63,453 bases of DNA from a virus (IMGVR_UViG_3300046028_006969:1-63453), one strand, 5' to 3'; counted from the first letter of the stretch, positions 11,044-57,123 are shown. The notes: generated by a model from the letters alone, not told the origin. A program made the numbers and translations.

Positions 11044-11060
11044 TTAATGGAGATTTTGAT

Positions 11061-39941: not shown

Positions 39942-40202
39942 ATGCTTAAACCTTTGAACAAAAAACTAGTGGTAAAATTAATTGAAAAAGAAACAGTAAC
40001 TGCCGGTGGAATTATTTTGACCCGTGCTGATCCCAGCGAAGCCAATCGCGGTATAGTTGTTTCTGTCGGATCAGAAGTACTTGACATTTCTGTTGGAGAT
40101 GTTATACTCCCTAACTGGAACAAGGCACCGAAGACTAAGGTCGGAGAAGAAACCTTCTACATTGTTTCAGAAGAAGATGTTGTTTTAATATTTGAATCAT
40201 GA
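39942..40202 (+). CDS. groES: GroES-like co-chaperonin
   Basis: LKPLNKKLVV, TAGGIIL, VGDVI and EEDV motifs. Confidence 0.88.
   Translation: MLKPLNKKLVVKLIEKETVTAGGIILTRADPSEANRGIVVSVGSEVLDISVGDVILPNWNKAPKTKVGEETFYIVSEEDVVLIFES
40081..40108 (+). promoter_or_regulatory. putative sigma70 promoter inside groES
   Basis: TTGACA-16-TATACT with TG extension, about 90 nt upstream of the cassette array. Confidence 0.45.
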
Positions 40203-40396
40203 TGAACAAAAAAATTGAAGAACTAGCCTTGCAAGCCGGAGGCTCTCATTTTCCTAGAGTGGGTGGAAAGAACCTAGAAAAGTTCACCGAGTTGATTGTG
40301 AAAGAAACCATGCAGGTTGTGGCCAATAATCTACCGCAGAACACTTACCTTGATGTTGCCGATGCGGTGATAGAACATTTCGCAGTTGAAGAATGA
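40199..40396 (+). CDS. MNERI/EKFAEL/HFGVEE family mini-gene
   Basis: EKFTELIVKE...EHFAVEE. Confidence 0.8.
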   Translation: MMNKKIEELALQAGGSHFPRVGGKNLEKFTELIVKETMQVVANNLPQNTYLDVADAVIEHFAVEE

Positions 40397-40736
40397 ACTT
40401 TTTAGCAATTGATTATACTTTATTGAACTTATTCTCCTTTGTACTGGGGATGCTATTTGCTTCCTCTATGTGGAGAGTACGTGCTTTAATGTTTGTCGTA
40501 CTTTATTTTATGTGTGTTTCTGCTTATTTTGGTGGATTGTATTATATGAAAACTTGAAGGATGAAAATTATGGAAGAAACAGAGAAAAAACCCAATAACG
40601 GTGAAATGATTAAGAAAATTAAGAAACAGAATCCTGGTGTCAAGATTAAAAAGGCGGCCGGTGGCGGTTTCCAGATTATTAATCCACGAGCTCCCAGTTC
40701 TCTACTCAATAGTCTGATTAAACGGTTGGATAATAA

Positions 40737-40988
40737 ATGAACGAACGAATTAAAGAACTTTGGGAACAGTGTAAGACTCCTGATTGGCATCAAGACAATC
40801 CCACTTACGATCACGAAAAGTTTGCCGAGTTGATTATAGAGGAGTGTGCTAGGGAGGTTGAAGTATTTGCACGAAAGTGGTGGTCTATTCATTGCTATAG
40901 CAACAAACACGCGGAGACAACCCGTAAAGCACATGACGATTTTTGTGCATTGCAAGCAGCAATCAGAAGAAGAGGAAAAACGGTATGA
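40737..40988 (+). CDS. MNERI family mini-gene (no 3' box)
   Basis: MNERIKEL...EKFAELIIEEC. Confidence 0.8.
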   Translation: MNERIKELWEQCKTPDWHQDNPTYDHEKFAELIIEECAREVEVFARKWWSIHCYSNKHAETTRKAHDDFCALQAAIRRRGKTV

Positions 40989-41248
40989 CCGAACGAATTC
41001 GACTACTAAAAGAACAGGCTATGGAATGGGTGCCTAATATGGCCGACCCAGATACAAAGATTCGGCTTCTCAATGCAGAAAAGTTTGCCGAGTTGATTGT
41101 CAGGGAATGTGCCAACCTTCTAATGAAACCAGAGTATGTTATGAATCATCCTGAAGAACTTACCGACTACAATCGTGGTTGGGTCAACGGAAGATTGCTA
41201 GGTATTGAACATATTAAAGAACACTTCGGAGTAAAGAATGATCGATGA
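40985..41248 (+). CDS. MNERI family mini-gene
   Basis: MTERIRLLKEQA...EKFAELIVREC...IKEHFGVK. Confidence 0.8.
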   Translation: MTERIRLLKEQAMEWVPNMADPDTKIRLLNAEKFAELIVRECANLLMKPEYVMNHPEELTDYNRGWVNGRLLGIEHIKEHFGVKNDR

Positions 41249-41411
41249 AAATGGATATGAGTGGGAAGTATATTATAATGGCGAGTTGCTCGGTAGATCA
41301 AATACCGAAGGAAGACACCAACTTGTCAAAGAAAAAGTAGAGCATCCAATTGGCATACCGGAGATTGAATTTAAGTTGGTCTTGAAACAAGATTTTGGAG
41401 TTAAAGAATGA
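41238..41411 (+). CDS. 57-aa protein ending in a degenerate 3' box (DFGVKE)
   Basis: Starts at the ATG within the upstream 3' box; ends TTTTGGAGTTAAAGAATGA. Confidence 0.55.
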   Translation: MIDENGYEWEVYYNGELLGRSNTEGRHQLVKEKVEHPIGIPEIEFKLVLKQDFGVKE

Positions 41412-41617
41412 AACCTGTATCAGCCAACGGTGTAAATGGTGTTTTGATAAAAACTCAATCTGGATATATGTTCCGTGTCTACGATGACGAGCATAATTTT
41501 GTAGATTATGATTTACAACATAGTGACTTATCTGTTACAATAACTGATGAGGATGCGTATTTCTATCTTAACTCAGTGTTAGACCACGCACCTGCAACAC
41601 TAGGACATAAAGAATGA
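41408..41617 (+). CDS. hypothetical protein
   Basis: ATGA-coupled on both sides; FRVYD and DYDL motifs. Confidence 0.65.
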   Translation: MKPVSANGVNGVLIKTQSGYMFRVYDDEHNFVDYDLQHSDLSVTITDEDAYFYLNSVLDHAPATLGHKE

Positions 41618-41829
41618 ACCAACAACTAATAGATAAATTTTTACATAAGGCTGGTGCCCTCTTTGGTGCAGAGGGTACCGACTATTCCAGTTTTACATCA
41701 AGCAAGTTCGCCGAGTTGATTGTCCAAGACTATGCCAAGAAAACAATTCAAGGTCTAATGAGCGATCCTGCTTTCGTACAAGCAATGGACGAGTATTATG
41801 AGAACAAATGGGCACACCGTTTTGATTAA
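41614..41829 (+). CDS. MNERI family mini-gene, divergent; 3' box left non-coding at 41830-41848
   Basis: SKFAELIV with an exact middle box at 41704. Confidence 0.7.
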   Translation: MNQQLIDKFLHKAGALFGAEGTDYSSFTSSKFAELIVQDYAKKTIQGLMSDPAFVQAMDEYYENKWAHRFD

Positions 41830-41844
41830 CATCGGAGTTGAAGA

Positions 41845-42006
41845 ATGAAAGATATTGAGATTGAACTATACTGCGACGGATGGACAGTTAAAGTAGACGG
41901 CAAGAGTTTCCGTTGGGATCATAATGACGAAGACATGGGAACAGAGGGCATCAAAAAACTGTTGAAATATCTCGGACATAATGTCACAGTCGAGGAGTGT
42001 TATTAA
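41845..42006 (+). CDS. 53-aa hypothetical protein
   Basis: MKDIEIELYCDGW..., starting at the ATG of the orphan 3' box. Confidence 0.55.
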   Translation: MKDIEIELYCDGWTVKVDGKSFRWDHNDEDMGTEGIKKLLKYLGHNVTVEECY

Positions 42007-42215
42007 TGAACGAACGAATTAAAGAACTTTTAGAAGAGGCTGGTGTAAAATATATCGTTATGCCTTCACCCGCCACAGCATACGAAAAGTTCGCCGAGTT
42101 GATTGTGAAGGAATGTATGGATGTTGCTTACGATCACACACCTAACTCAGAAGAATGCGAATACAAACGGTTGATCCATAACAAGATTAGAGACCATTTC
42201 GGAGTTGAAGAATGA
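42006..42215 (+). CDS. MNERI family mini-gene (all three boxes)
   Basis: MNERIKEL...EKFAELIVKEC...DHFGVEE. Confidence 0.85.
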   Translation: MNERIKELLEEAGVKYIVMPSPATAYEKFAELIVKECMDVAYDHTPNSEECEYKRLIHNKIRDHFGVEE

Positions 42216-42412
42216 ATAGTATACACTTATCAAAAGATGATTTGAATAAAATCCAAGCATTCGTAAACAAATACCCAGCTGCTGAATTCTTTGAATTACA
42301 GGCAGACTCGTCTTCCGGCATTGGCACCATATTACATGTTTCCGTAAATGTAACAAGTGGCGGTGATTGGGTTCAAATAAGAAAAACCATCGTGGACGAA
42401 AGCAGCTGGTGA
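42212..42412 (+). CDS. hypothetical protein
   Basis: ATGA-coupled; SSSGIG motif. Confidence 0.65.
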   Translation: MNSIHLSKDDLNKIQAFVNKYPAAEFFELQADSSSGIGTILHVSVNVTSGGDWVQIRKTIVDESSW

Positions 42413-42583
42413 TGAGAGAATTCTCCACATTCATTATGATTATATTATGGATTGTAGGCCTGGTTGTTGCAAAGGGATTTTGGAGTACATTCTTTGCTGC
42501 AATATTCCCCCTTTACTCCTGGTACCTTGTTGTAGAACATTTTTTATTAAAATATAATCTACTATAATTCACTATAATTCATT

Positions 42584-42880
42584 ATGAAAGCCACAGCTAA
42601 GAAAGAATCTGCGAAGGATTCTGTAAAGGATTCTGCAAAGGATTCTGTAAAGGATTCTGCAAAGGAATCTGCCAAAGATATGGTCTATTTCTGGAACGAT
42701 TCTGAGATAGACGAAGGCACCTATAAGAAGCTCACCGAAGACCACAGACTATGGGTAATCGCAGAAGAAGAAAAATCTGCGGCACATCAAGTGGCCACTG
42801 CGGCTGCTGCGAAAAAAAATTCTGAGGATATAAAGCTGGCCAAGAAAAATCGAAAAGAGGCTCTGAGGGCCAGAAAATAA
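42584..42880 (+). CDS. K/A-rich protein with a tetrapeptide repeat
   Basis: KESA/KDSV/KDSA x6. Confidence 0.6.
   Translation: MKATAKKESAKDSVKDSAKDSVKDSAKESAKDMVYFWNDSEIDEGTYKKLTEDHRLWVIAEEEKSAAHQVATAAAAKKNSEDIKLAKKNRKEALRARK
42602..42673 (+). repeat. 12-bp tandem repeat, six units
   Basis: AARGAWTCTGYN x6, in frame. Confidence 0.9.
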
Positions 42881-42982
42881 AAAAGAGGAGAAAAGAGTTT
42901 CGCCATGGAGAACTTTTTTATAGCACGCACCGCCGGACCGCCAAGCCCTGTCGCCAAGCACTGCTGTTTTTAGCAGTGGGGC

Positions 42983-43011
42983 TTGACCAGCCCCACCACC
43001 TGTGTTATACT
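42983..43011 (+). promoter_or_regulatory. sigma70-type promoter with the -35 in a hairpin loop; antisense to the minus-strand block
   Basis: TTGACC-17-TATACT; GTGGGGCT-TGACC-AGCCCCAC. Confidence 0.5.
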
Positions 43012-43230
43012 GGCCGACTGGCGCTATGCGTCCTGCTGCCAACCACCTGAGCGTCCCAATGCCTTGCCATATTTCTAACCAGACTAACCCGACCGGCTGG
43101 TCCAAAAAGCAGAGTATCCACCATATGCGACCACATTATACTGCCCTCCATACATAGCAATCCATGACCAGTACCACCACAGCTATGAGGTACACTAAGG
43201 TAAATCCTATCCGTTCCATTCGTTCGAGGT

Positions 43231-43413
43231 TCATGTGTTCTTCTCCAGGATATTATGGGAGGCTTGGCGTTTACCGTCTTGCCGGGCTGCGTGACGCTGT
43301 GATTTTGCTGAGGCGTTTGCGGCCTTTTTTGTTCCCCACCGCACGGTTTTGTGGTGGATGTCATCAACCCCAACAGTTCGCCCCTTATTACTGTCTGCTG
43401 TGTAAGCCTTCAT
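43231..43413 (-). CDS. small basic hypothetical protein
   Basis: ATGA-coupled to the upstream cassette 3' box. Confidence 0.6.
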   Translation of the reverse strand: MKAYTADSNKGRTVGVDDIHHKTVRWGTKKAANASAKSQRHAARQDGKRQASHNILEKNT

Positions 43414-43643
43414 TCTTCAACTCCAAAATGTTCTTTGATTCTATCACGAATGTAATACTGCAAGTCACTTACTGATATGTCGGGTAATGCATCAAAAATG
43501 TCGAATACTTTATCGGCACATTCTAGAATAATCAATTCTGCGAATTTTTCTTTATCAAAATCTTCTTGCATTACTTGAGTATTGGCATTCCAGTATTGGC
43601 ATCTAGTAGCCTGTTCAGCAAATTTTTTAATTCGTTCGTTCAT
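43410..43643 (-). CDS. MNERI family mini-gene
   Basis: MNERIKKFAEQA...EKFAELIILEC...IKEHFGVEE. Confidence 0.85.
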   Translation of the reverse strand: MNERIKKFAEQATRCQYWNANTQVMQEDFDKEKFAELIILECADKVFDIFDALPDISVSDLQYYIRDRIKEHFGVEE

Positions 43644-43759
43644 AGAATCTCCCAAGTGATAGCAGTTGAATTCATTGCCTTGCGTGCCTTCCAGTAAGGC
43701 AGTGCCCATGTCACATTCGATTCAACCACAATAAGTCGTTTGTTAAAATATACTTTCAT
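43640..43759 (-). CDS. 39-aa hypothetical protein between two cassettes
   Basis: MKVYFNKRLIVVESNVTWALPYWK..., ATGA-coupled on both sides. Confidence 0.5.
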   Translation of the reverse strand: MKVYFNKRLIVVESNVTWALPYWKARKAMNSTAITWEIL

Positions 43760-43965
43760 TCTTCAACTCCAAAATGTTGTTTAATCTTGTTACTAACATT
43801 CAACGCACATTCATAATAGGATGCGTCATATCCAACACCAGCACATTCTAGAACAATCAGTCCGGCGAAAGTTTCCATCAAGTATTCTTGATATCTACTT
43901 TTATCTTCAAACGTGTTGGCCCAATATTCAGCAACCTTGGCAAGTTCTTTAATTCGTTCGTTCAT
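43756..43965 (-). CDS. MNERI family mini-gene
   Basis: MNERIKELAKVA...ETFAGLIVLEC...IKQHFGVEE. Confidence 0.85.
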   Translation of the reverse strand: MNERIKELAKVAEYWANTFEDKSRYQEYLMETFAGLIVLECAGVGYDASYYECALNVSNKIKQHFGVEE

Positions 43966-43988
43966 TTTTTTTCTTTCTGGAGAGGGGC

Positions 43989-44017
43989 TTGACAACCCCT
44001 GCCAGATATGATACAAT
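43989..44017 (+). promoter_or_regulatory. sigma70-type promoter, antisense to 44024..44314
   Basis: TTGACA-17-TACAAT with TG; -35 flanked by AGGGG/CCCCT. Confidence 0.55.
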
Positions 44018-44023
44018 GGTCGG

Positions 44024-44314
44024 TCAAGCCTTAGCCACTTGCGTTGTGACGGTCACAGCACCAGGTTTGCGAGCAGCCTTGTTAGCTTTCGAACCTGTAA
44101 CGATTGTCTTGGAGAGAAGCTTCTCCAGTTTAGCTTTAGCTTTTTCGATAGCCGTAGCTTTGCGAGCCTCAGCATTTTGAGTCTTGGCCATTTTCTGAGC
44201 CACCCGAAGGAATGCATGCTCTTTAGCCAGGTCGGAGACCTCTTGCTTAAGCAATTTTAGTTGGGTGCGCTTTTCGGCGAGCTTGAGAGCAGTAGCGGTT
44301 TTAGTAGAAGCCAT
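44024..44314 (-). CDS. Lys/Ala-rich basic protein (histone-H1-like composition)
   Basis: RBS AAGGAC; own promoter; strongly K/A/T biased. Confidence 0.75.
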   Translation of the reverse strand: MASTKTATALKLAEKRTQLKLLKQEVSDLAKEHAFLRVAQKMAKTQNAEARKATAIEKAKAKLEKLLSKTIVTGSKANKAARKPGAVTVTTQVAKA

Positions 44315-44344
44315 GATAAAGTCCTTTTGAATTAATAAGATGCC

Positions 44345-44373
44345 ATTATACCAGAGTTTATTGGAAAAGTCAA
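44345..44373 (-). promoter_or_regulatory. sigma70-type early promoter
   Basis: Minus strand TTGACT-17-TATAAT with TG. Confidence 0.8.
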
Positions 44374-44405
44374 GCCCTCTGGGAATACTTGACCAAATTG
44401 GTGTG

Positions 44406-44582
44406 TTAAAATTCGATTATCTCGGCTCTCCAGTAGCAATCAGGGGTACCACCTTCTTCCCAGCTGTTTTTGAACCTTACAGCCTCTTCCTTAGTGGTGA
44501 ATATTTTGGTTTCACAATGCCGCTGGCCAAATTCATATTCAGTAACCACCACCTTGTACAGTTTACCACCGGTGTATTCCAT
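44406..44582 (-). CDS. 58-aa hypothetical protein (not in ORF track)
   Basis: MEYTGGKLYKVVVTEYEFGQR...WRAEIIEF; RBS AAGGA; own promoter. Confidence 0.65.
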   Translation of the reverse strand: MEYTGGKLYKVVVTEYEFGQRHCETKIFTTKEEAVRFKNSWEEGGTPDCYWRAEIIEF

Positions 44583-44612
44583 TTGGTTTCCTTTTCGATT
44601 ATCAATGGTGCC

Positions 44613-44641
44613 ATTGTACCATAGTTTGGCAGGTTTGTCAA
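44613..44641 (-). promoter_or_regulatory. sigma70-type early promoter
   Basis: Minus strand TTGACA-17-TACAAT with TG. Confidence 0.8.
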
Positions 44642-44687
44642 GGGCTTTCTGGAATACTTGACCAATCCGCTGTACTATTCGAAGGGC

Positions 44688-45029
44688 TTGACAGGAGGGG
44701 CTGGATGTGATAGGATGGGGGGTACACTACCTGGCCACCTGAATACTTCAAAAGCTGCGAATAGCTGCAGCTTTTTGAATCATTTTAAAAAATCAGGTGG
44801 CCATATAGTGCCTCTGGATCCCTTCGGGGGGCTTGACAACCACCGTGGTTATGGTATAATGGACCTATTCGAAAGCAGGACTGGGATGGACAAGGAGGCT
44901 GAGCGTACTATTATCGCTGTGAGAATCGATGCCGTTCTGACAATCATTCAAAAAGTCGCAAAGTGTCGCAAAAACGACACCAAAAAGTCTCGGAAAGTGC
45001 TTGACAATGTTCGGATTTTGTGATAAAAT
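44688..45029 (+). promoter_or_regulatory. three tandem sigma70-type promoters
   Basis: TTGACA at 44688 (17, TAGGAT), 44833 (16, TATAAT) and 45001 (17, TAAAAT). Confidence 0.7.
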
Positions 45030-45306
45030 AGTGGATTTTCGGAGCGCCGTGCAATGGACTGACTAGATTCCGCTTAATTGTCAATACCGCGACTATTTTA
45101 TTCAATCATATCCTAAAGATAATCATTCGCATCCACTGCTCCGACAGCTCCTGCGACAATCAGTATTATTATATACTAAGCGTTCAAAATATTACCAATC
45201 AGTCACTTTTTATACACAGCTTATACACAAGTTTTTAATGATATCTATTTTGGCAATCATTCCTAATCCTATTCTATACCAATCCACTACACTATTCCGA
45301 ATGTCC

Positions 45307-45335
45307 TTGACAATTCCTAGGTTCTATGGTATAAT
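45307..45335 (+). promoter_or_regulatory. sigma70 consensus promoter
   Basis: TTGACA-17-TATAAT with TG. Confidence 0.85.
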
Positions 45336-45374
45336 GGACTCTTATTTCAACCACATATAGGAATTATCATTAAT

Positions 45375-45557
45375 ATGATTATGTCATTTTCTGAAGCAAT
45401 GGAAATAGTATCTCAATTCGGTTATGCTAATAAGTCGGAATCATTGATTGGTGCTATCTCGGATATGGAGGACGCATATGATGACCTGTCCTTGAACCAG
45501 ATAGCGGCATATAATTTTATCATTGGTGAATATAATAATATGGCAGAAATGGTTTAA
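45375..45557 (+). CDS. small acidic hypothetical protein
   Basis: Follows a promoter and RBS AGGA. Confidence 0.6.
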   Translation: MIMSFSEAMEIVSQFGYANKSESLIGAISDMEDAYDDLSLNQIAAYNFIIGEYNNMAEMV

Positions 45558-45559
45558 TT

Positions 45560-45880
45560 ATGGATAATAATGATAAACAAAAAATCATGGGAATATTATT
45601 CCGTGATTATACACCTGACCATCGGAAATATACTTCCATTTATAAGGGTGTACCGGTTCAATTAATTAATGAATATAAAAAATTCATCGATTTTACCAAA
45701 TTCTATATTATGTACCGTGGTCCCCGGCGTGGTCGTGGCAATACTACACTCAAGCAGGACGCGGTTCGGGCTGATATCTATGAATATCGGCCACGTGATA
45801 TTATAGCTAAACGTCAGGAACGGACACAATATAATAATTATGTGGTGCAGCGTCGGCGTGGTCTATCAATTGTAAAATGA
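45560..45880 (+). CDS. basic hypothetical protein
   Basis: YKGVP and YRGPR motifs. Confidence 0.65.
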   Translation: MDNNDKQKIMGILFRDYTPDHRKYTSIYKGVPVQLINEYKKFIDFTKFYIMYRGPRRGRGNTTLKQDAVRADIYEYRPRDIIAKRQERTQYNNYVVQRRRGLSIVK

Positions 45881-45945
45881 TATTGGAATTGACGACTATT
45901 GTGGAATTAATAGGTGACCGGTTTGGTCAAGTATCCAAATAGTGC

Positions 45946-45974
45946 TTGACAATTCCTAGGTTTTCTGGTATAAT
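45946..45974 (+). promoter_or_regulatory. sigma70 consensus promoter, near-copy of the one at 45307
   Basis: CTTGACAATTCCTAGGTT...TGGTATAATGG shared with 45306. Confidence 0.85.
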
Positions 45975-46004
45975 GGCACCATCGTTTAGCAAAAAAGGTT
46001 TATT

Positions 46005-46754: not shown

Positions 46755-46784
46755 TTACCAGCATTATTTAATTAAGGTAATATT

Positions 46785-47069: not shown

Positions 47070-47090
47070 TTAATTAATAAAGGTAATATT

Positions 47091-47291
47091 ATGATAACTA
47101 TTAAAGAAGAACAGGCATATCAACAATTTGATGCCTTTTTGGGATTTGTTACAATATGCGGTACAGAATTTTATGCTGCTGGAATTCTAAAACAAATTGA
47201 TATAGATTTGTATAATGAAAAATTTGTTGAATTTTGTAATCGTATGGGATATGACTACAATAATTTAGACGGATTACAGGACTGGGATTAA
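47091..47291 (+). CDS. hypothetical protein
   Basis: 66 aa; RBS AAGGT. Confidence 0.6.
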   Translation: MITIKEEQAYQQFDAFLGFVTICGTEFYAAGILKQIDIDLYNEKFVEFCNRMGYDYNNLDGLQDWD

Positions 47292-47294
47292 TAT

Positions 47295-47346
47295 TGTTGT
47301 AATAATACAACACAGCCCTTGACATATCCTTGGATTCTGATATAAT
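47295..47346 (+). promoter_or_regulatory. early promoter with TGTTG-N8-CAACA box
   Basis: TGTTGTAATAATACAACA, 6 nt, TTGACA-16-TATAAT. Confidence 0.85.
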
Positions 47347-47374
47347 ATAGTTTGTTTAATTGATAGAGGTAATT

Positions 47375-47866: not shown

Positions 47867-47930
47867 ATAGGTGTGGATCACCACCCACCACAGGTGCATC
47901 CACTCTAATATCTATTACGGAGATACCAGC

Positions 47931-48374
47931 ATGAAATATATATACACTTCGGCCGAATTCGACCAAAAAATGTGTTCCATTTTTAATGTGGATTATGTTG
48001 AAAGAGAAACAACTAGAATACCATTGGAAAAACTAACAACCATAAGTCCACCTAATTTAGGTATTGATATTGGTGTTTTTGGTAAAGATCCTTGGAATAA
48101 AGGTAAAAAAACTGGACCTTTATCTGAATCACATAAAAACGCATTAGCACTTGCTGCAAAATCACATAAAAGAACCGAAGAACATAAAAAAAATAATGCA
48201 CTAGCCCATTGTAAATCTTGGTTAGTAACTGATCCAACCGGCAATACATTTATTATAAAGAATATGAATGAATTTTGTAAAAATAATGGATTATTAACAG
48301 GAAGAATGACATTGGTTAGTCAAGGTAAATATAAACAACATAGAGGATGGACTTGTTCCAAAATTAAAAAATGA
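47931..48374 (+). CDS. NUMOD3/NUMOD1-type DNA-binding protein with no evident nuclease domain
   Basis: PWNKGKKTGPLSESHK and FCKNNGL...KQHRGW motifs; ATAAATA and a hairpin upstream. Confidence 0.7.
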   Translation: MKYIYTSAEFDQKMCSIFNVDYVERETTRIPLEKLTTISPPNLGIDIGVFGKDPWNKGKKTGPLSESHKNALALAAKSHKRTEEHKKNNALAHCKSWLVTDPTGNTFIIKNMNEFCKNNGLLTGRMTLVSQGKYKQHRGWTCSKIKK

Positions 48375-48619
48375 AAACAGCTGATATTAAAAAAGGTATG
48401 CTTCTGCGTATGGCCAATGGTTGGTACGGCATCATGCAGGATAATGGTCGAGGTACAACCCGTGTTGTCGAGGTAAAAGGTTATTATACTGAAACAGGTT
48501 CGGTTTATTCGCATGATATTGTATTGGCCCTTCCTGTGGATGGTGGAATTTGGGAAATTGTAGAGCATACTACAAAAGAGTTGCAGCTAAAAGAAATGAC
48601 AGAAAAATTATTCGCCTAA
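48371..48619 (+). CDS. conserved phage hypothetical protein
   Basis: DIKKG, DNGRG and ETGSVYSHDI motifs. Confidence 0.7.
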   Translation: MKTADIKKGMLLRMANGWYGIMQDNGRGTTRVVEVKGYYTETGSVYSHDIVLALPVDGGIWEIVEHTTKELQLKEMTEKLFA

Positions 48620-48624
48620 AAATT

Positions 48625-49155
48625 ATGTTTGATAAAATCACCAAAAAGTCGCATGATTATCTACAGACTCAATTAGATGAGCTGAAAGAAAATTGTGACA
48701 AAAATCCTGCTGTCGCTGAATTGGTGAATTATATTATTGCCTACAGTGATGAGATGGCTTACTCCAGAAACGATGCTAGTCCTGATGCTGTGATTGGTCG
48801 TGACTTATGCCAGATAATTTGGGAAATTTCAGGTACAGATTTAGGTACTATTGGTAACCAGTTTCATTTTAACGCTGCTTGGGCATACGAACTGAATATG
48901 TTTATTGATAACTATTTCTATAATGATGCAGCCTTTGATTTTGATATTGATGAGCGCAGTGGCATCATTAGATTCAAGGCCGCAAGTGATACAGGTCGCT
49001 GGTTGCAGAACCCATTAATTCTTATTGAGGCTGCAAAGGCTAATCGTATCCGTTATGATAACATGGATCGTTCAACCCTAGAAAATCGCCGGTCTGTGCC
49101 TCAGGTAGACGTTAGCCGAGTTATTGAGTTAGTGACCAAGGATATATTAAAATGA
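48625..49155 (+). CDS. hypothetical protein
   Basis: 176-aa ORF, ATGA-coupled to a cassette. Confidence 0.65.
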   Translation: MFDKITKKSHDYLQTQLDELKENCDKNPAVAELVNYIIAYSDEMAYSRNDASPDAVIGRDLCQIIWEISGTDLGTIGNQFHFNAAWAYELNMFIDNYFYNDAAFDFDIDERSGIIRFKAASDTGRWLQNPLILIEAAKANRIRYDNMDRSTLENRRSVPQVDVSRVIELVTKDILK

Positions 49156-49337
49156 ACGAACGAATTGAACAACTTGCCGAACAGGCTGAAACATGGAATG
49201 CTGATGGAGACAAGTGCGAGGTTGACTTGGAAAAGTTCGCCGAGTTGATTGTGAGGGAATGTATGTCATATATGGAAGATGGTGATATTGACTTTGCCAA
49301 GTTTATGATTAGAAAACATTTCGGAGTTGAAAAATGA
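49152..49337 (+). CDS. MNERI family mini-gene
   Basis: All three boxes; ends HFGVEK. Confidence 0.85.
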   Translation: MNERIEQLAEQAETWNADGDKCEVDLEKFAELIVRECMSYMEDGDIDFAKFMIRKHFGVEK

Positions 49338-49537
49338 AGATAGAAACAACAATGGATCGTGAATTTCCATTTTGGGTTATTGCTGAATATGAACCGGGTC
49401 AGCGAGTTACCAAAGATATGATAACTTTTGATACTGACCGGCCGGATGTACATGTAAACAAGTATGGCGTGGTACTATTCCGTAATACTGTTACGGCACT
49501 AAGGTTGTTGAAAAAAGATTTTGAAGTTGAAATTTAA
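49334..49537 (+). CDS. hypothetical protein
   Basis: ATGA-coupled, 67 aa. Confidence 0.6.
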   Translation: MKIETTMDREFPFWVIAEYEPGQRVTKDMITFDTDRPDVHVNKYGVVLFRNTVTALRLLKKDFEVEI

Positions 49538-49552
49538 TTAAAGGAAAATATT

Positions 49553-50128: not shown

Positions 50129-50173
50129 GAATGGCACGATTTTAATCCTGAGTGTTAATATAAGGAAGTAATT

Positions 50174-51193: not shown

Positions 51194-51469
51194 ATGAGTG
51201 TTAAAAAGACAATTGCAGGAACTATTATGAAAGAATTTAGTTTTTTCTTGGAGGCATATCGGTTTTGTATGACAGCAGGCATATCTTCTGAAAGCATTTC
51301 TCGCCGTGATTGGAAAACTTGGACTGTAAAAGTGCCTACAAAATGATTCTATTATATGTTGGTGCCATTTTATCGGTTTTATTCTTATTAGAATTGACTA
51401 TTGGTATTATTATTACATTATGCATCCAAAGGTGGGGTGTTTATCGTGATTTTATATGGATTAAGTGAC

Positions 51470-51521
51470 TGTTGTTTTAATACAACACATCACTTGACAT
51501 TTATACCAATCCTGTTATAAT
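51470..51521 (+). promoter_or_regulatory. early promoter with TGTTG-N8-CAACA box
   Basis: TGTTGTTTTAATACAACA, 6 nt, TTGACA-16-TATAAT. Confidence 0.85.
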
Positions 51522-51552
51522 AGAGTCTTATTCAGTCAATTAGGAGTTTTTT

Positions 51553-51954
51553 ATGGGTACACGTTCTTTGACCTTTGTTTATGAAAATGGCGCACCTAAG
51601 CCTTTACCGGTTTTGTGTATGTACCGTCAGTTTGATGGTTATCCAGAAGGACACGGCCGGGAATTGTCCCAATTTCTTGGTGGTTTTGTTGCCATTGTAA
51701 ATGGCCTGCGGTTCAATGAAACTCGTAAAGTGGCTAATGGTATGGGTTGCCTTGCGGCTCAATTAGTTGGTCATTTTAAGTCTGAGGCTGGTGGTTTCTA
51801 TTTGTATCCAACCAATTCTAAGGATTGCGGCCAAGATTATGAATATCACATTTATGAGGACAAAATCAAAGTGAAAGTTTCCAACGGTAAAGCCATTTTT
51901 ACTGGTTCTTGGAAAGAATTTACTGATTTTTGTCACACCGCTGATGTTGCGTAA
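51553..51954 (+). CDS. conserved phage hypothetical protein
   Basis: MGTRSLT, YRQFDGYPEGHG and NGMGCLAAQL motifs. Confidence 0.8.
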   Translation: MGTRSLTFVYENGAPKPLPVLCMYRQFDGYPEGHGRELSQFLGGFVAIVNGLRFNETRKVANGMGCLAAQLVGHFKSEAGGFYLYPTNSKDCGQDYEYHIYEDKIKVKVSNGKAIFTGSWKEFTDFCHTADVA

Positions 51955-52006
51955 AAACAACAGCCGTCCCGAAAGTTCTTGACGGGACGGCCCATTGTGT
52001 TATACT
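51945..52006 (+). promoter_or_regulatory. early promoter with TGTTG-N8-CAACA box and a hairpin over the -35
   Basis: TGTTGCGTAAAAACAACA, 16 nt, TTGACG-16-TATACT; GCCGTCCC/GGGACGGC stem. Confidence 0.75.
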
Positions 52007-52030
52007 TGTGGCATTAATTAAGTAATTAAA

Positions 52031-52693
52031 ATGAAAACTTTAATAACCATTACTGTGTTATCCGTGTCTGCAAATTCTGCCCATGCCATTTGGACAGAAA
52101 AAGCTTCAGATTCAGGTATTAATGTTACCCATTGCATACAACCAGGAGTTGATTCTGTTAAATGTATTCGGGCTCTAAAACAAAAACTTGAACCAAAAAC
52201 CATAACACAGAAATCGGTTAAAGTCATAAAACAGAAACCAGTTAAAGATATTCGAACTGTTATATCCAATAACGATATTAAATTGAGTGGTCGTGGAGTG
52301 GATACATCAACAAAAGATATTAGATGCCTTGCATATTCTATTTTTCGTGAGGCCGGTAATCAGAAAGTTGTTGACCAGTATGCAGTTGGCCAAGTCCATG
52401 TGAACCGATTAAAAGAAGGATCATGGGGAAAAACAATGTGTAATGTTGTATATGCTAAAGCACAATTTAGTTGGACTCTAGAATCTAAAGTGGTTGCATG
52501 GTCTAAAAAACAAGAACAACATTTTACTGATATAGCTGAAGGATTATTGGTTGATGGAGTTTATGTCAAGAAATTGGCTTCTAATAAGATTCTACATTAT
52601 CATGCTACTTATGTCAATCCCAAATGGGCAAAGCAAGGGCAAATGGTTGCTAGTGCCGGTGCTCATGTGTTTTATAAAAATGTTCCTTATTAA
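52031..52693 (+). CDS. SleB/Hydrolase_2-like cell wall hydrolase with a signal peptide
   Basis: CLAYSIFREA, VNR, CNVVY..AQFSW, YHATYVNPKWA and HVFY motifs. Confidence 0.85.
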   Translation: MKTLITITVLSVSANSAHAIWTEKASDSGINVTHCIQPGVDSVKCIRALKQKLEPKTITQKSVKVIKQKPVKDIRTVISNNDIKLSGRGVDTSTKDIRCLAYSIFREAGNQKVVDQYAVGQVHVNRLKEGSWGKTMCNVVYAKAQFSWTLESKVVAWSKKQEQHFTDIAEGLLVDGVYVKKLASNKILHYHATYVNPKWAKQGQMVASAGAHVFYKNVPY

Positions 52694-52706
52694 TTAAAGG
52701 ATTATA

Positions 52707-52946
52707 ATGGATTATTTCCTTACTTTTATATCATTATTTTGTATTGATGTTTTTTATACTTATTATTTAAGAGCAATTGCAGAGAGTAAGGCATTGGCCG
52801 CTAGCTCATGGGCAATTGTTGTAACAATATTGGGTGCGTTTGTTGTTATTAACTATACAACGAACCATATGATGCTTATACCTGCTGCTCTTGGTGCATT
52901 TTGTGGTACATATGTTGGAATGAAATTAAGAAAGAAAGAAAGCTGA
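52707..52946 (+). CDS. small multi-TM membrane protein
   Basis: Three hydrophobic segments; GAFCGTY. Confidence 0.7.
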   Translation: MDYFLTFISLFCIDVFYTYYLRAIAESKALAASSWAIVVTILGAFVVINYTTNHMMLIPAALGAFCGTYVGMKLRKKES

Positions 52947-52953
52947 GTAATAT

Positions 52954-53181
52954 ATGAGTGAACGAATTTATCTGTCTAAACGTAATCTATTGACCTTGTT
53001 ATCCAAACTGGATCGGTTTGAACAAGGACAGGAAACCAAGTGTGCTATTATAAAGTATGCTAATCCACTTGACCCATATTGCAATACAATGGATGAAGTG
53101 ATGGTTATTGCAGTACCTGATGAAGCATTATACACCAAACGTAGTGCGGGCAAAATGCATCCATTGGATGAACCAAAATGA
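52954..53181 (+). CDS. hypothetical protein
   Basis: LSKRNLLTLLSKLD motif. Confidence 0.7.
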   Translation: MSERIYLSKRNLLTLLSKLDRFEQGQETKCAIIKYANPLDPYCNTMDEVMVIAVPDEALYTKRSAGKMHPLDEPK

Positions 53182-53438
53182 ATGAACAACTAAGACAACT
53201 TGCAATAAAATCTGGTATTGACATGTATGGTTTAGGCTCTGATAGGGAGAAATGGGAATCCGTTCTTGAAAAGTTTGCCAATTTGATTATAGGTAAATGC
53301 AGTCTTGTCTTATTGGTCAAATCTATGGAATATGCCGATGAAGGATATTTGGCTCAATGCCAATCAATGAATGAAGCTTCAAACTTAATTAGAAATGCTC
53401 TAAAAACCAACGTATCTGTTGTAATAAAACAACAGTAA
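53178..53438 (+). CDS. divergent MNERI family member
   Basis: MNEQLRQLA...EKFANLIIGKC. Confidence 0.7.
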   Translation: MNEQLRQLAIKSGIDMYGLGSDREKWESVLEKFANLIIGKCSLVLLVKSMEYADEGYLAQCQSMNEASNLIRNALKTNVSVVIKQQ

Positions 53439-53478
53439 CCTAAAAAGTCCTTGACTTTCCGTCCCGGACGTGTATAAT
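53417..53478 (+). promoter_or_regulatory. early promoter with TGTTG-N8-CAACA box
   Basis: TGTTGTAATAAAACAACA, 16 nt, TTGACT-16-TATAAT. Confidence 0.8.
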
Positions 53479-53510
53479 TGCCATTTTAACTGATTGATAT
53501 TGGAACTTTT

Positions 53511-54377
53511 ATGTCAAACATTTTTACTATTGGTGATAAGTATGCTGCTGTTATCGACGGCAAAACCGTGAAGCGTTCTAATCGCCGTGCTCTAGAGCGT
53601 ATGCTTAAGCGTACCGATGTTTCGGTGCCTATTGTAGAATCCAAATTCTCTATCAATGAGCGTTTTGGTTTTGTGAAAGATATGGTTACTATGTTGGCCA
53701 ATGGCGACCAAGCGTCCGTTGTTGTTACTGGTCCTGGTGGTCTCGGTAAATCTCATACTGTTTCGGCTGCATTGCGTGATGCAGGTTTCAATGATGTTTC
53801 CGTGCTTGACGAATTGGAAGTTGGTGACAATATTCCTAAGAATTCATACCGTGTAGTAAAAGGTTATTCTACACCCAAAGGTTTGTACCGTACACTATAC
53901 GAAAACCGTAATTCGGTTATCGTATTTGATGATTGTGATTCGGTCCTAAAAGATCCGGTGTCCTTGAATTTGCTCAAGGCTGCTTTGGATTCTTATTCTC
54001 GCCGTATTATTTCATGGCGTGCGGACATCAAAGACGAGGACCTGCCAACTGTCTTTGAATTCAAGGGTCGTGTGGTTTTTATCTCCAATTTATCTTCCGC
54101 ATCATTGGATCAAGCCATAATCACTCGCTCACTAGCGGTTGACCTGACTATGACAGCCAAACAAAAAGTAGAGCGTATGCGTTTCCTGTTGACACAACCA
54201 GACTTCATGGAAGACTTTGCAATGGTTCACAAGACAGAAGCAATGGACCTTGTGGATACTTTGTGTGATAACATTAAAGAATTGTCCTTGCGGACACTCA
54301 TGCAGGTTATTAAGATTCGTAAATCGAATCCTAATGGCAAATGGAAAGATTTGGCTGAATACGCAATTTGCGGTTAA
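53511..54377 (+). CDS. AAA-type ATPase
   Basis: GPGGLGKS Walker A, VFDDCD Walker B and FISN sensor. Confidence 0.85.
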   Translation: MSNIFTIGDKYAAVIDGKTVKRSNRRALERMLKRTDVSVPIVESKFSINERFGFVKDMVTMLANGDQASVVVTGPGGLGKSHTVSAALRDAGFNDVSVLDELEVGDNIPKNSYRVVKGYSTPKGLYRTLYENRNSVIVFDDCDSVLKDPVSLNLLKAALDSYSRRIISWRADIKDEDLPTVFEFKGRVVFISNLSSASLDQAIITRSLAVDLTMTAKQKVERMRFLLTQPDFMEDFAMVHKTEAMDLVDTLCDNIKELSLRTLMQVIKIRKSNPNGKWKDLAEYAICG

Positions 54378-54577
54378 TAGGAAATTATATGTTTTGGACT
54401 ATTGTATTAATTGGTGTTGGTTTGGGTTCAAATAGTGTAACATATGTCGGCCAATTTGAGCAACAAGAAACCTGTGTCAAAGCATCACAAGAGTTTAAGG
54501 CATTAAACAAACAGGCCGTTTGTGTTCAAATACAAAAACCTGATGCTGCGGCATCTGTAAAGAAATAGGAAAGTACT

Positions 54578-54757
54578 ATGACTGAAGAATTTAAAGCGTA
54601 CATTTTTGCATACCTAGACATGGTAAGGGAATCTGGTGCCATCAATATGTTTGAGGGTGCAAGAGTGATCCAAGACGAATTTGGACTCGATAGGCGTACC
54701 TCCAGAGAATTATTGATTGAATGGATGAAACAATTTTCTAAGGATAATGTTGCGTAA
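54578..54757 (+). CDS. 59-aa hypothetical protein (not in ORF track)
   Basis: YLDMVRESGAINMF motif; RBS AGGA. Confidence 0.65.
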   Translation: MTEEFKAYIFAYLDMVRESGAINMFEGARVIQDEFGLDRRTSRELLIEWMKQFSKDNVA

Positions 54758-54800
54758 AAACAACATATACCATTGACATTCCTGCCACTTTGTGTATAAT
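54748..54800 (+). promoter_or_regulatory. early promoter with TGTTG-N8-CAACA box
   Basis: TGTTGCGTAAAAACAACA, 7 nt, TTGACA-16-TATAAT. Confidence 0.85.
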
Positions 54801-54832
54801 TGCCTCTATCAATTCAGTAAATAGGACTTTTC

Positions 54833-55081
54833 ATGCGTACAAAACAATTCATCCAAGGTTTCAATAACAAGCAACGTGTTCGTGCCATTATCAATGGTGT
54901 TGGATTCTATGCGACTGTGCAGGACCTATTGTCTGGGCCATTTTCTGACCAGACGACAGCATTGCACCAAGTATTGCATTCCTTGAATTTAGAAAAATCT
55001 ACAGGTATTGGTACCAGAGTTACGGTGTATAATTATAAAATGGAACAAAAATCTTTTGATATTCAATTGGATTTAGTATGA
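54833..55081 (+). CDS. hypothetical protein
   Basis: Follows a promoter and RBS AGGA. Confidence 0.7.
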   Translation: MRTKQFIQGFNNKQRVRAIINGVGFYATVQDLLSGPFSDQTTALHQVLHSLNLEKSTGIGTRVTVYNYKMEQKSFDIQLDLV

Positions 55082-55401
55082 GGGAAGCATTTACTGAACG
55101 TCAGCAATATTTGATTGCTAAAAATCTAATCAAAGCCGCCACATTGGATATTGAATGTCTGACAAAGGCATCATATCAATATATTTCAGGTTGTTGTGGT
55201 TTTATTGCACATTATGACCGTGAAGGTTTCATTGCATCATATGAAACACCGCAGAATTTGAGGCATGATATATTGCACAATGCAAAGGCCAATCAATACA
55301 ATAATTTTAAACCAAATGATGTAAATTACGATTACTATATGTCGAAGCGTAATGTATATGAAATGGTTGTTGAAGGTATTAAAAATGTATCATATGCTTA
55401 A
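55078..55401 (+). CDS. hypothetical protein
   Basis: GFIAHYDREGF motif. Confidence 0.65.
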   Translation: MREAFTERQQYLIAKNLIKAATLDIECLTKASYQYISGCCGFIAHYDREGFIASYETPQNLRHDILHNAKANQYNNFKPNDVNYDYYMSKRNVYEMVVEGIKNVSYA

Positions 55402-55593
55402 AGAGGTAACTGCCTGGAATATGTCAGGTGGTTCATGTAATCATTTGTATTTGTTTGAAGAAAAACCAAAAGGTAGAACAGCAAAGGCTCTTGGTTATAT
55501 TCGTAGAGGTACTGATGAGGTAGTCAAATTCAAAAATGGTTTGGTTATTGAAATGAAAAATAGGAATTTCATTGAGGTAAAAAAGGTGAAGGT

Positions 55594-55770
55594 ATGAACG
55601 AACGAATTAAAGCCATGCCGTGGGGCGTCAAAGTAGCCGCAGTATTTTTGTTGATATGCTATATTACATTGTTATTTTTGTCGCCAGGGATATCGCTAAT
55701 CCTTAATCTTGTTATTTGTCTGCTTGCTGCCATCAATAGAATCATAGAATACAATGTAAGCGGACATTAA
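55594..55770 (+). CDS. 58-aa membrane protein carrying only the MNERI 5' box
   Basis: ATGAACGAACGAATT fused to an unrelated 2-TM body. Confidence 0.6.
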   Translation: MNERIKAMPWGVKVAAVFLLICYITLLFLSPGISLILNLVICLLAAINRIIEYNVSGH

Positions 55771-55771
55771 T

Positions 55772-55969
55772 ATGAACGAACGAATTGAAAAACTTGCTGA
55801 ACAGGCTGAAGAATGGAACGCCGATGGGGACAAATGTGAAGTCAATCTACACAAGTTCGCCGAGTTGATTGTTCAGGAATGTATTGAACTAAACCGACAA
55901 GAGTTATCGTTCTCTGCATTTGCGAGAATGTTAGACAAGTATGAAGAACATTTCGGAGTTGAAGAATGA
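55772..55969 (+). CDS. MNERI family mini-gene
   Basis: All three boxes exact. Confidence 0.85.
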   Translation: MNERIEKLAEQAEEWNADGDKCEVNLHKFAELIVQECIELNRQELSFSAFARMLDKYEEHFGVEE

Positions 55970-56104
55970 CAGACTATGAATTAGCAGAAACATTGAGAAC
56001 TGCTGCCAGGAGTGCGAGAGATAACATTGCTCTTGAAATGCTGTTGTTGATGGCAGCAGAACGAATAGAACAGTTGAGTGTGGTGCAAACTCCAGGAAAC
56101 TATA

Positions 56105-56311
56105 ATGAACGAACATATTAGACAACCTGCTGAACAGGCACGAAAATACGCAGACGAAAATCGTTCAGGATCCTTTGTGAAATATGACCCTGAATGGTTT
56201 GTTTTGTATAACGAAAAGTTCGCCGAACTAATTGTGCGGCAATGTGCTGAGATTTGTTTGGAAGCGAACGACCATAAAAATATCTTACGATATTTCGGAG
56301 TTGAAGAATGA
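56105..56311 (+). CDS. MNERI family mini-gene
   Basis: MNEHIRQPAEQA...EKFAELIVRQC...YFGVEE. Confidence 0.8.
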   Translation: MNEHIRQPAEQARKYADENRSGSFVKYDPEWFVLYNEKFAELIVRQCAEICLEANDHKNILRYFGVEE

Positions 56312-56538
56312 GAACAGTATGGGTAATTTGTGAAACAGTAGACTTGGGCTATCGCATGGTCAAGGGCTACGATTCGTATGGCAAAGCAAAGGCTGAGTTT
56401 GACCGAATGTATGCCAAAGCCGTTGATGAGAAAGTCAAGGCATTGATGAAACACTGTGATTATACAAAAGAGCAAGGCGAGGATTGGTGTGCAAGTGTCT
56501 CTTTCTATGAATTGGAAAGTGTGGAGATTGAAGAATGA
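56308..56538 (+). CDS. hypothetical protein between cassettes
   Basis: ATGA-coupled on both sides; ends GGAGATTGAAGAATGA. Confidence 0.7.
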   Translation: MRTVWVICETVDLGYRMVKGYDSYGKAKAEFDRMYAKAVDEKVKALMKHCDYTKEQGEDWCASVSFYELESVEIEE

Positions 56539-56762
56539 ACGAACGAATTCGAGAACTTGTTAGACAGGCTGGACTAGATGATGCCGACTTTCCTATTGAG
56601 AATTGGGATAATGTTCCCTTAGCAAAGTTCGCCGAGTTGATTGTGCGAGAATGCGGTGCAGTAATCAATAGTGAAAATTATCGTGAACATTCCAAGGGAT
56701 GGAATGATGCTATTGAATGGGCAGATGGTATGATTAAAGAACATTTCGGAGTTGAAGAATGA
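56535..56762 (+). CDS. MNERI family mini-gene
   Basis: All three boxes exact. Confidence 0.85.
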   Translation: MNERIRELVRQAGLDDADFPIENWDNVPLAKFAELIVRECGAVINSENYREHSKGWNDAIEWADGMIKEHFGVEE

Positions 56763-56874
56763 CCCCAATTGAATATCTACAATCTCTTATTACAGGGATG
56801 GAAATGGGCTCAGAGATTCCAGTGCAATTGTCAGAATTGAAACTTCTAATGGCTCTTATTAAGGCAGATAAAGA

Positions 56875-57123
56875 ATGAACGAACGAATTAAAGCACTGTT
56901 ACTTAATGAAAGAAATATGTTTGTCAATGGGGTAACGGAATCTAATAACAAAATATACATTCACGGTTCAGAAGAAAACTTGGAAAAATTCGCTGAACTA
57001 ATTGTTAGGGAATGTATCAGAATTGTAGAAAAAAACGAAAGTGAGATGCATTACGATAATGGAATGTATCCTGTATATCTTACAGTTTGTGAGATTCGAG
57101 AACATTTCGGAGTTGAAGAATGA
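56875..57123 (+). CDS. MNERI family mini-gene
   Basis: MNERIKAL...EKFAELIVREC...REHFGVEE. Confidence 0.85.
   Translation: MNERIKALLLNERNMFVNGVTESNNKIYIHGSEENLEKFAELIVRECIRIVEKNESEMHYDNGMYPVYLTVCEIREHFGVEE

Follow-up and report, generated by a model that had tools for sequence, protein, structure and literature searches.

Three in-frame boxes as apparent exchange points between the variable modules of a small-gene family in a T4-like lake phage

How does a single phage genome come to carry 13 small genes that share three short and often letter-identical stretches of DNA, separated by two variable segments that are unrelated from gene to gene? The question is raised by IMGVR_UViG_3300046028_006969, a viral record of 63,453 nucleotides (63 kb) with 36.8% G+C and a completeness estimate of 38% (below, the window means this whole stretch), in which an initial annotation made from the sequence alone had described such genes at 40199-57123 as a conserved scaffold with variable inserts that is diversified and spread by recombination at the shared boxes. 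Our data support this description through module mixing, step-shaped identity profiles and genomic slots of changing content, and the two variable segments appear, from the sequences compared, to be independent modules in which the histories of the two halves are separate.

In place of the roughly 13 open reading frames (ORFs) of 61-87 amino acids that had been proposed on both strands, a hidden Markov model (HMM) built from the copies returns exactly 13 in that size range, 11 on the plus and two on the minus strand, and the open frame is intact in 13 of 13. These family members are:

40199-40396, plus strand: member of 65 amino acids in which Thr replaces the conserved Cys; 3' box with one mismatch
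40737-40988, plus strand: member without a 3' box, whose stop overlaps the start of the next member (40985)
40985-41248, plus strand: member of 87 amino acids with a variant 3' end
41614-41829, plus strand: member whose own frame lacks a 3' box
42006-42215, plus strand: member of 69 amino acids, modelled
43410-43643, minus strand: member of 77 amino acids
43756-43965, minus strand: member of 69 amino acids
49152-49337, plus strand: member of 61 amino acids with an N module in common with 55772-55969
53178-53438, plus strand: diverged member without a 3' box
55772-55969, plus strand: member of 65 amino acids
56105-56311, plus strand: member of 68 amino acids
56535-56762, plus strand: member of 75 amino acids, modelled as monomer and homodimer
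56875-57123, plus strand: member of 82 amino acids

All exact box copies reported at the outset were re-found. The 5' box (ATGAACGAACGAATT) occurs nine times exactly in the window (40737, 42006, 43643 and 43965 on the minus strand, 49152, 55594, 55772, 56535, 56875) and 12 times when up to two mismatches are allowed, versus 0.30 expected from shuffles; the mid box (AAGTTCGCCGAGTTGATTGT) occurs five times exactly (41704, 42087, 49233, 55853, 56625) and nine times with up to three mismatches, versus 0.01. For the 3' box (CATTTCGGAGTTGAAGAATGA), four exact copies (42195, 55949, 56742, 57103) are joined by five with one mismatch and two with three, versus 0.00 expected, so that the six or so near-copies claimed for it are also there and far above chance. 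A clean in-frame 3' box ends nine of the 13 members, the one at 40985 has a variant box and those at 40737 and 53178 have none. Boxes are rarely met outside family genes: of 221 5' boxes six lie there (one of these in a family gene that the list had missed), of 187 3' boxes 15, and of 226 mid boxes none. Directly upstream of 53178-53438 lies an ORF (52954-53181) that starts with MSERI, encoded by a 5' box with two mismatches, which the HMM does not count as a member. Mid and 3' boxes both hold TTCG(CC)GAGTTGA, a likeness that is out of frame and 2 nt of insertion apart (e.g. 42087-42106 and 42195-42215) and that may be chance or the trace of an internal duplication.

The evidence for shuffling comes above all from 150 three-box genes drawn from DNA of 79 sources, whose modules, clustered at 60% identity over 70% of their length, form 114 clusters of N modules and 115 clusters of C modules. 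Eleven pairs of these genes share both modules, 48 share only the N module and 36 only the C module. Ten of the 11 double matches are 100% identical with their 300-nt flanks included, which implies that the same phage was sampled twice. In pairs that share one module the flanks are unrelated, and modules up to 100% identical in DNA stand beside unrelated partner modules. Averaged over N-sharing pairs, identity stays near 0.3 upstream of the ATG, rises to 0.87-0.99 between the ATG and the end of the mid box and is back at about 0.3 from 30 nt past the start of the mid box, and C-sharing pairs give the mirror image, with identity at about 0.3-0.4 immediately past the stop. Identity breakpoints are thereby located at all three boxes, which differ from one another in sequence. 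With database proteins added, 50 of 55 multi-member N clusters pair with at least two C clusters and 48 of 49 C clusters with at least two N clusters, and seven four-gamete squares are found among the module clusters. Taking the 13 window genes alone, their N modules recur in 61 other proteins, one of which keeps the C module, and their C modules in 48, one of which keeps the N module. Protein P0004, for example, has an N half matching that of 43756-43965 and a C half matching that of 43410-43643, the gene next to it, and P0013 is a further comparison protein for 43756-43965; the N module of 40737-40988 recurs with a different C module in P0046, and the C module of 40985-41248 is joined to four other N modules (P0005, P0048, P0052, P0116). 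Agreement between the trees of the two halves, which the initial annotation had named as a sign of an ordinary old paralogue family, did not occur: the halves have independent histories. Within module clusters, N modules show a dN/dS of 0.13 at a synonymous divergence (dS) of 0.63 (48 pairs) and C modules a dN/dS of 0.10 at a dS of 0.96 (34 pairs), and this combination of low dN/dS with high dS argues against hypermutation as well as against junk. The variable modules thus look like working protein parts under purifying selection.

Genomic position was followed in sister phages, defined by a CobS that is 81-90% identical in amino acids to that of the window. They keep the backbone order (AAA protein, 54578, 54833, 55078, 55352, slot, 57842, CobS) and differ in the content of the slot that lies between the 55352-55597 homologue and CobS, with no member (L192, L193), one (L191), two (L187, L189) or three (L196), all of other module types. 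In the window the same slot is filled by four members, cargo ORFs and a chimera, the latter placed where sister phages begin their first member:

55594-55770, plus strand: chimera of the 5' box (MNERIK) and a hydrophobic, membrane-like ORF

A second slot, between the homologues of 47360 and 48371, contains a member in L187 and L191 and is empty in L189 and L193, and the block 48550-49537, member 49152 included, is absent from L187 and L191. Fixed syntenic positions in relatives, another sign of old paralogy named beforehand, were therefore not encountered, slots being filled in some sisters and empty in others. The window itself has at the second slot, in place of the member of L187 and L191, an unrelated ORF of 167 amino acids (47871-48374) with no Pfam match; an impression of a DNA-binding tail had suggested a relative of homing endonucleases, for which Pfam gave no support.

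These results bear directly on the view that the genes are ordinary old paralogues, their boxes being a conserved core and their variable parts having diverged without any special exchange. Conservation of box amino acids would be expected on this account, given that the boxes provide many of the modelled dimer contacts described below. It is contradicted by DNA modules up to 100% identical beside unrelated partners and flanks, by step-shaped profiles and four-gamete squares, and by partners kept in 1/61 and 1/48 module matches and slots of variable occupancy, and we regard it as extremely improbable.

Equally hard to credit, in our judgement, is an origin of the mixed combinations in metagenome assembly, with chimeric contigs arising at the repeated boxes. 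All data are assemblies, and Logan contigs, which are built with k=31, often end at boxes, implying that the boxes do disturb assembly graphs. Exact identity between window copies, however, does not exceed 27 nt, which is shorter than a read and is exceeded by the final k-mers of the usual assemblers. Independent contigs from other runs moreover span whole members and their flanks with 0-1 mismatches (records 8, 16 and 29, one Logan contig of record 29 spanning member 49152-49337 intact), every member has an open frame, and 10 identical pairs recur in different samples.

The members sit among other small genes in a way that makes the 3' box part of the expression layout. It carries a GGAG seven bases ahead of an ATGA, and the proposal that this ATGA is both the stop of one gene and the start of the next is borne out on the plus strand by nine downstream ORFs, each starting with the ATGA of a 3' box or near-copy:

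40393-40557, plus strand: cargo ORF starting at a 3'-box ATGA
41408-41617, plus strand: cargo ORF, likewise
41845-42006, plus strand: cargo ORF, likewise
42212-42412, plus strand: cargo ORF, likewise
49334-49537, plus strand: cargo ORF, likewise
55966-56121, plus strand: cargo ORF, likewise
56308-56538, plus strand: cargo ORF, likewise
56759-56878, plus strand: cargo ORF, likewise
57120-57446, plus strand: cargo ORF, likewise

Three cargo ORFs have homologues behind a 3' box in other phages too (L062, L032, L041, L079, L083), and from 55594 to 57718 members alternate with small unrelated ORFs, linked by overlapping stop and start codons. Two further features belong to this layout, the second of which provides the GGAG and the ATG for ORF 41845-42006:

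41238-41411, plus strand: non-family ORF ending in a 3'-box-like DFGVKE/ATGA joint
41828-41848, plus strand: out-of-frame (+1) 3' box DNA following the stop of 41614-41829

Between 39.5 and 58 kb the plus strand has seven 12-of-12 matches to a sigma-70-type promoter, and no promoter match falls within any box. Near-perfect promoters head the operon of 40.2-42.9 kb and the pair of minus-strand members, and a perfect one heads the operon of the 55.6-57.4 kb array:

40081, plus strand: sigma-70-type promoter, consensus match (11 of 12)
44373, minus strand: sigma-70-type promoter, consensus match (11 of 12)
47319, plus strand: sigma-70-type promoter, consensus match
54773-54800, plus strand: perfect sigma-70-type promoter heading the array operon, consensus match

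Contigs from RNA libraries were considered as proof that members are transcribed and set aside on account of their many mismatches.

Why should the boxes be alike in DNA and not just in protein? Among 335 members from the window and 80 viral loci (81 sources, 1-13 members per 20-kb locus), which range from 35 to 52% G+C, exact copies number 154 for the 5' box, 112 for the mid box and 95 for the 3' box. Arg4 is encoded by CGA in 91% of them versus a background of 13%. In the mid box AAG reaches 92% (background 36%), TTC 82% (34%), GCC 83% (22%), GAG 86% (25%) and TTG 86% (25%), so that the run AAG-TTC-GCC-GAG-TTG-ATT is kept at 82-95% per codon versus 22-51%; in the 3' box GGA reaches 96% (22%) and GTT 95% (35%). 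Codon choice depends on position, with AAA at codon 6 and AAG in the mid box, and GAA elsewhere and GAG in the mid box, which excludes a general codon bias. Across 10949 pairs of genes from different sources and with unrelated modules, the same codon is used in the box cores in 0.72-0.97 of the pairs that agree in residue, versus 0.18-0.63 expected from background use, and the excess fades at the box edges (Gly13 0.30 vs 0.33, mid-box Val 0.39 vs 0.27, Arg 0.38 vs 0.26). The N module common to 49152 and 55772 differs at seven or more silent positions and the boxes on both sides of it are identical. RNA structure was ruled out as the cause, since the sole pair of complementary 6-mers has a median pairing probability of 0.02 and the minimum free energy a z-score of -0.23. 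Synonymous sites in the boxes as diverged as elsewhere, the remaining sign of old paralogy named by the initial annotation, were not encountered: core codons are far more alike than background use predicts, with the caveat that the whole mid box is no lower in dS than shared N modules. By the NG86 method, whole-box dS is lowest in the 5' box (0.22-0.41) and the 3' box (0.32-0.34) and amounts to 0.62-0.80 in the mid box.

Such numbers leave some room for the possibility that box DNA is conserved through protein and translation constraints, with recombination as an incidental and unselected by-product. The constraints would be the start-codon context at the 5' box and, at the 3' box, the Shine-Dalgarno motif, its spacer and the overlapping stop and start. 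That GGAG and ATGA of the 3' box start nine downstream ORFs, that this box is retained even out of frame (41828-41848), that 5' and 3' boxes have the lowest dS and that the mid box is less constrained by NG86 all speak for it. On the other hand, the mid box is intragenic and devoid of a translation signal, yet its codons stand far above background as given above, and neither RNA structure nor general codon bias accounts for this. We consider the by-product account somewhat unlikely.

The sequences compared make the pattern itself evident: the modules are independent, breakpoints lie at the boxes, and hot slots gain and lose content. From it we infer the agent and arrive at an explanation that is, taken as a whole, probably correct: modules recombined at the boxes by ordinary homologous recombination. 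Each of the 13 genes would encode a three-helix protein 60-90 amino acids long and stand in an operon under a sigma-70-type promoter of early appearance, and the 3' box would double as stop, as ribosome-binding site (GGAG) and as start (ATGA) of the next small gene. The comparisons show old N and C modules, purified by selection, to be exchanged independently of each other and of their flanks, with breakpoints within the boxes, and whole members and small cargo genes to be gained and lost at the same genomic slots. Exchange between copies, whether within one genome or in phages that co-infect, may proceed through homologous recombination or gene conversion via the UvsX of the phage, or through template switching coupled to replication, and would use the 15-27 bp of identity that the boxes supply. 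Repeated conversion, together with the translation signals at both ends, would keep box cores alike at silent sites, to which selection for staying recombinable may possibly add. T4-type phages recombine heavily during replication, and the window encodes a candidate for the enzyme:

5106-6140, plus strand: UvsX-type recombinase (PF21134, E 1.3e-15; RecA, E 9.3e-12)

The boxes could instead be enzyme sites, and more than stretches of homology, in a dedicated diversification or mobility system whose sequence-specific enzyme, such as a homing-type endonuclease or a site-specific recombinase, acts on them and drives exchange. Such a system would fit with silent sites of the box cores being kept across phages of 35-52% G+C beyond what the protein needs, with homology tracts that are very short for general recombination, and with the unrelated ORF 47871-48374 filling the slot of the L187/L191 member. 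The length of these tracts (15-27 nt), along with the 62% of the genome that lies outside the window, gives this option its room, as the window is about 38% of the genome and the gene may be located elsewhere. Yet 41 of the 46 window ORFs of at least 160 amino acids were tested (the other five are one duplicate frame listing and four antisense ORFs) and yielded no integrase, transposase, reverse transcriptase or known endonuclease family, in keeping with the initial annotation for the first three classes; ORF 47871-48374 is without a Pfam match, and breakpoints fall at three boxes of differing sequence. On balance a dedicated enzyme is improbable. Nor is the selfish mini-element that the initial annotation had also entertained favoured, because the boxes occur almost only in family genes, purifying selection acts on the modules and the search for a dedicated enzyme among the tested ORFs came up empty.

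Several observations count against exchange by ordinary recombination at the boxes and should be read with it. The comparison set consists of metagenome assemblies, partly pre-clustered at 50% or 90% identity, so that mixed combinations are inflated in the set with database proteins, the 150 DNA-derived genes being free of that bias. Identity tracts between window copies are short (longest 27 nt, median 15), and 15-27 nt is near the lower limit for recombinase-driven exchange. The evidence consists of assembled contigs, and contig joints have sides of 20-37 nt that boxes of other phages could produce. For this reason such joints were set aside as evidence of rearrangement or circles, family genes of other phages being able to yield them; a joint of 3' box and 5' box also occurs natively in the window, at 56538 and 56878. 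The mid-box dS (0.62-0.80) is no lower than that of shared N modules (0.63), which limits silent-site constraint in the mid box to about six codons, and translation signals alone can explain part of the conservation of the 5' and 3' boxes. The promoters were identified by consensus matching only, and the contigs of the RNA run show numerous mismatches. Finally, the lack of a Pfam, PHROG, NCBIfam or PDB relative in the searches reported below appears to leave function without a pointer.

Motif-based exchange as such is already known in T4-like phages, for intergenic regulatory cassettes and for one adhesin. The former, PeSL (promoter-early stem-loop) cassettes, are described in two reports (Arbiol et al. 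2010, PMC2839356; Comeau et al. 2014, PMC4122927) as short repeated DNA motifs in hyperplastic early-gene regions of T4-like phages, which serve as homologous exchange points for the insertion, deletion and replacement of small ORFs and which carry expression signals, much as the 3' box holds a ribosome site and a start. Our boxes, too, are repeated motifs that border indels and replacements between related T4-like phages, as slots and step profiles show. They differ from PeSLs, which those reports describe as intergenic promoter/terminator units, in being coding, in frame, inside ORFs and without a promoter; in numbering three per gene, which lets halves of genes be swapped in addition to whole ones and yields chimeric proteins; and in being known here from contigs alone, whereas PeSL mini-circles were physically demonstrated (PMC2839356, PMC4122927). 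PeSL-like units do exist in the window, apart from the boxes, where four promoters (47319, 51494, 53451, 54773) are preceded by a TGTTGT-loop-ACAACA hairpin:

47276-47346: hairpin-plus-promoter unit, PeSL-like
51451-51521: hairpin-plus-promoter unit, PeSL-like
53408-53478: hairpin-plus-promoter unit, PeSL-like
54730-54800: hairpin-plus-promoter unit, PeSL-like

Hairpins ahead of promoters fit the PeSL subclass with a stem-loop upstream of the -35 box that is outlined in one of these reports (PMC2839356).

The adhesin is the tail-fibre protein gp38 of T-even phages and the T4 superfamily, which resembles the family in that conserved core motifs lie between interchangeable variable segments, there described as specificity determinants, and which is a virion adhesin encoded once per genome, built of four segments and motifs rich in glycine (Trojet et al. 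2011, PMC3157838). The box family, by comparison, has 1-13 copies in early operons, two segments, helical boxes that are not glycine-rich and no link to tail fibres, its genes sitting among those for replication and nucleotide metabolism. Pfam and Foldseek searches gave no sequence or fold relation to gp38. In exchanging parts at short motifs of constant sequence the family works in the manner of PeSL and gp38 while belonging to neither. In segmental gene conversion of pilE/pilS and vlsE, variable cassettes flanked by conserved stretches that guide recombination produce combinatorial protein variants from one expressed locus and silent donors in a cellular genome; unlike there, every copy of the box family is intact and apparently expressed, and exchange also takes place between phages. 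Diversity-generating retroelements are not indicated, with no reverse transcriptase in the tested ORFs and variation in discrete modules at a dN/dS of about 0.1, and neither are integron cassettes, with no integrase in the tested ORFs, exchange also at the intragenic mid box and attC-like folding checked by RNA folding only. What is new is that the same principle acts within the coding frame of an unnamed and very large protein family, in which two protein halves about 100 bp apart associate near-freely and the silent sites of the crossover blocks stay constant across 35-52% G+C. Should selection for recombinability be what maintains this conservation, lytic phages would offer a clear natural example of second-order selection on a diversification mechanism, and a large pool of small binding proteins, so far untouched, would be indicated as well.

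What the shuffled halves may look like in the protein is suggested by AlphaFold2 models run with a 150-row alignment, which give the same three-helix layout for both members modelled, 56535-56762 (pLDDT 84.4, pTM 0.72; helices 3-11, 27-44, 47-50, 54-71) and 42006-42215 (pLDDT 86.4, pTM 0.73; helices 3-12, 23-44, 53-65). In these models the 5' box takes up the first helix, the mid box the middle one (KFAELIVREC) and the 3' box the end of the last (HFGVEE), the N-variable segment is predicted to form the loop joining helices 1 and 2, and the C-variable segment the end of helix 2 and most of helix 3. A homodimer of 56535-56762 was predicted with a score of 0.62 versus 0.01 for the best control; 20 of 30 solved pairs of one chain and 1 of 23 single chains reach that score, counts that hold only roughly here as the alignment was our own. 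Three dimer runs share at least 93% of contacts with a partner pLDDT of at least 75, and the modelled interface draws on all three boxes (residues 4-5, 8-9, 31-41, 66-71) and on the C segment (43-63), with F32-F32, I36-I36 and C40-C40 contacts across the axis and E39/C40 placed against H70 of the other chain. This supports a predicted homodimer with box residues in its interface. Cys and His are both present in 195 of 274 scoreable members and could bridge a putative metal site.

As a speculation, it is possible, if short of likely, that the genes provide a combinatorial set of small dimeric binders for use in early infection against variable targets of the host or of rival phages. A wider proposal strikes us as rather doubtful, namely that the boxes are an evolved recombination scaffold, some 20 bp each kept letter-perfect by selection, which shuffles two binding modules and cargo across paralogues and co-infecting phages and so maintains a community-wide library of small dimers, possibly metal-bridged through Cys and His and aimed at host defences or rival phages. 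Were that so, 13 paralogues sharing a box-encoded interface could multiply the repertoire through heterodimers, and phages would have their own version of antigenic variation by cassettes.

The family itself has so far gone without a name. A word-indexed search gave at least 7962 matches at E <= 1e-3 among 8000 scored candidates, and an exhaustive profile search gave 8176 representatives of 50%-identity clusters at E <= 1e-3, 1154 of them at E <= 1e-10. Family members had no match above cut-offs in Pfam and none in NCBIfam, a single weak match (E 0.0046, for one of 10 members) in PHROGs, a best E of 0.093 in a profile search of PDB and, for both modelled members, no Foldseek match to PDB at E <= 0.001. 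BFVD and the ESM Atlas returned only unnamed proteins of uncultured phages, all of the same family, and relatives bear only the database name 'hypothetical protein'. The dimerisation domain of Sgt2/SGTA recurred as a weak match (Foldseek probability up to 0.38; HMM E 0.89) and was rejected as too weak. Megablast of the region and tblastn of two members gave nothing relevant among cultured phages, the tblastn result being weak evidence because the proteins are short with variable linkers. Among 185,579 species genomes there were only 18 loci, all on contigs of metagenome-assembled genomes under varied bacterial labels (L089-L106; Aquiluna, Rhodoferax, Haliscomenobacter, Bacteroidetes and others, two Haliscomenobacter contigs being 148 and 183 kb long) and none in an isolate; these are probably phage contigs binned with bacteria, and we read no host from them. 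No publication with the box motif strings was found in a search that stopped short of supplementary files and subscription journals, and a concept search of the literature met no title or abstract opening bearing on such a family. The 30 whole records (G001-G030) have 1-12 profile matches each, many of which span only profile positions 1-45/57 or 19/37-76. Such half-gene matches, which end or start at the mid box, suggest that exchange with non-family sequence may occur there too.

The carrier is an uncultured lake T4-like myovirus. Apart from UvsX, the window encodes a T4-type DNA polymerase, replicative helicase, primase and NrdA as well as T4 RNase H, ThyX and an RNA ligase, and its CobS is 50% identical to its closest homologues, those of Pelagibacter phage HTVC008M and of cyanomyoviruses. 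A Gp23 capsid gene is found in 10 of 31 records (the window and 30 other carriers) and in four of the four that are at least 90% complete. All 24 sequencing runs listed are labelled lake water metagenome, and 22 of them contain at least half of the sampled words. The two ORF-poor stretches of the window gave folding z-scores of +2.5 (42900-43400, worse than shuffles) and -0.4, with no Rfam match; the former is C-rich on the plus strand, lies between convergent operons and is without a convincing ORF, Rfam or tRNA match. Within the replication module, a protein of 368 amino acids (7805-8911) has matches to the DruA family of Druantia (PF14236, E 4.8e-9) and to phrog_19197 (E 3e-140), a domain reminiscent of defence systems. 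It is followed, between the helicase and primase genes, by sugar-modification genes (8915-20536) that include a family 2 glycosyltransferase, several methyltransferases, an epimerase of the GDP-mannose-dehydratase type and a cytidylyltransferase.

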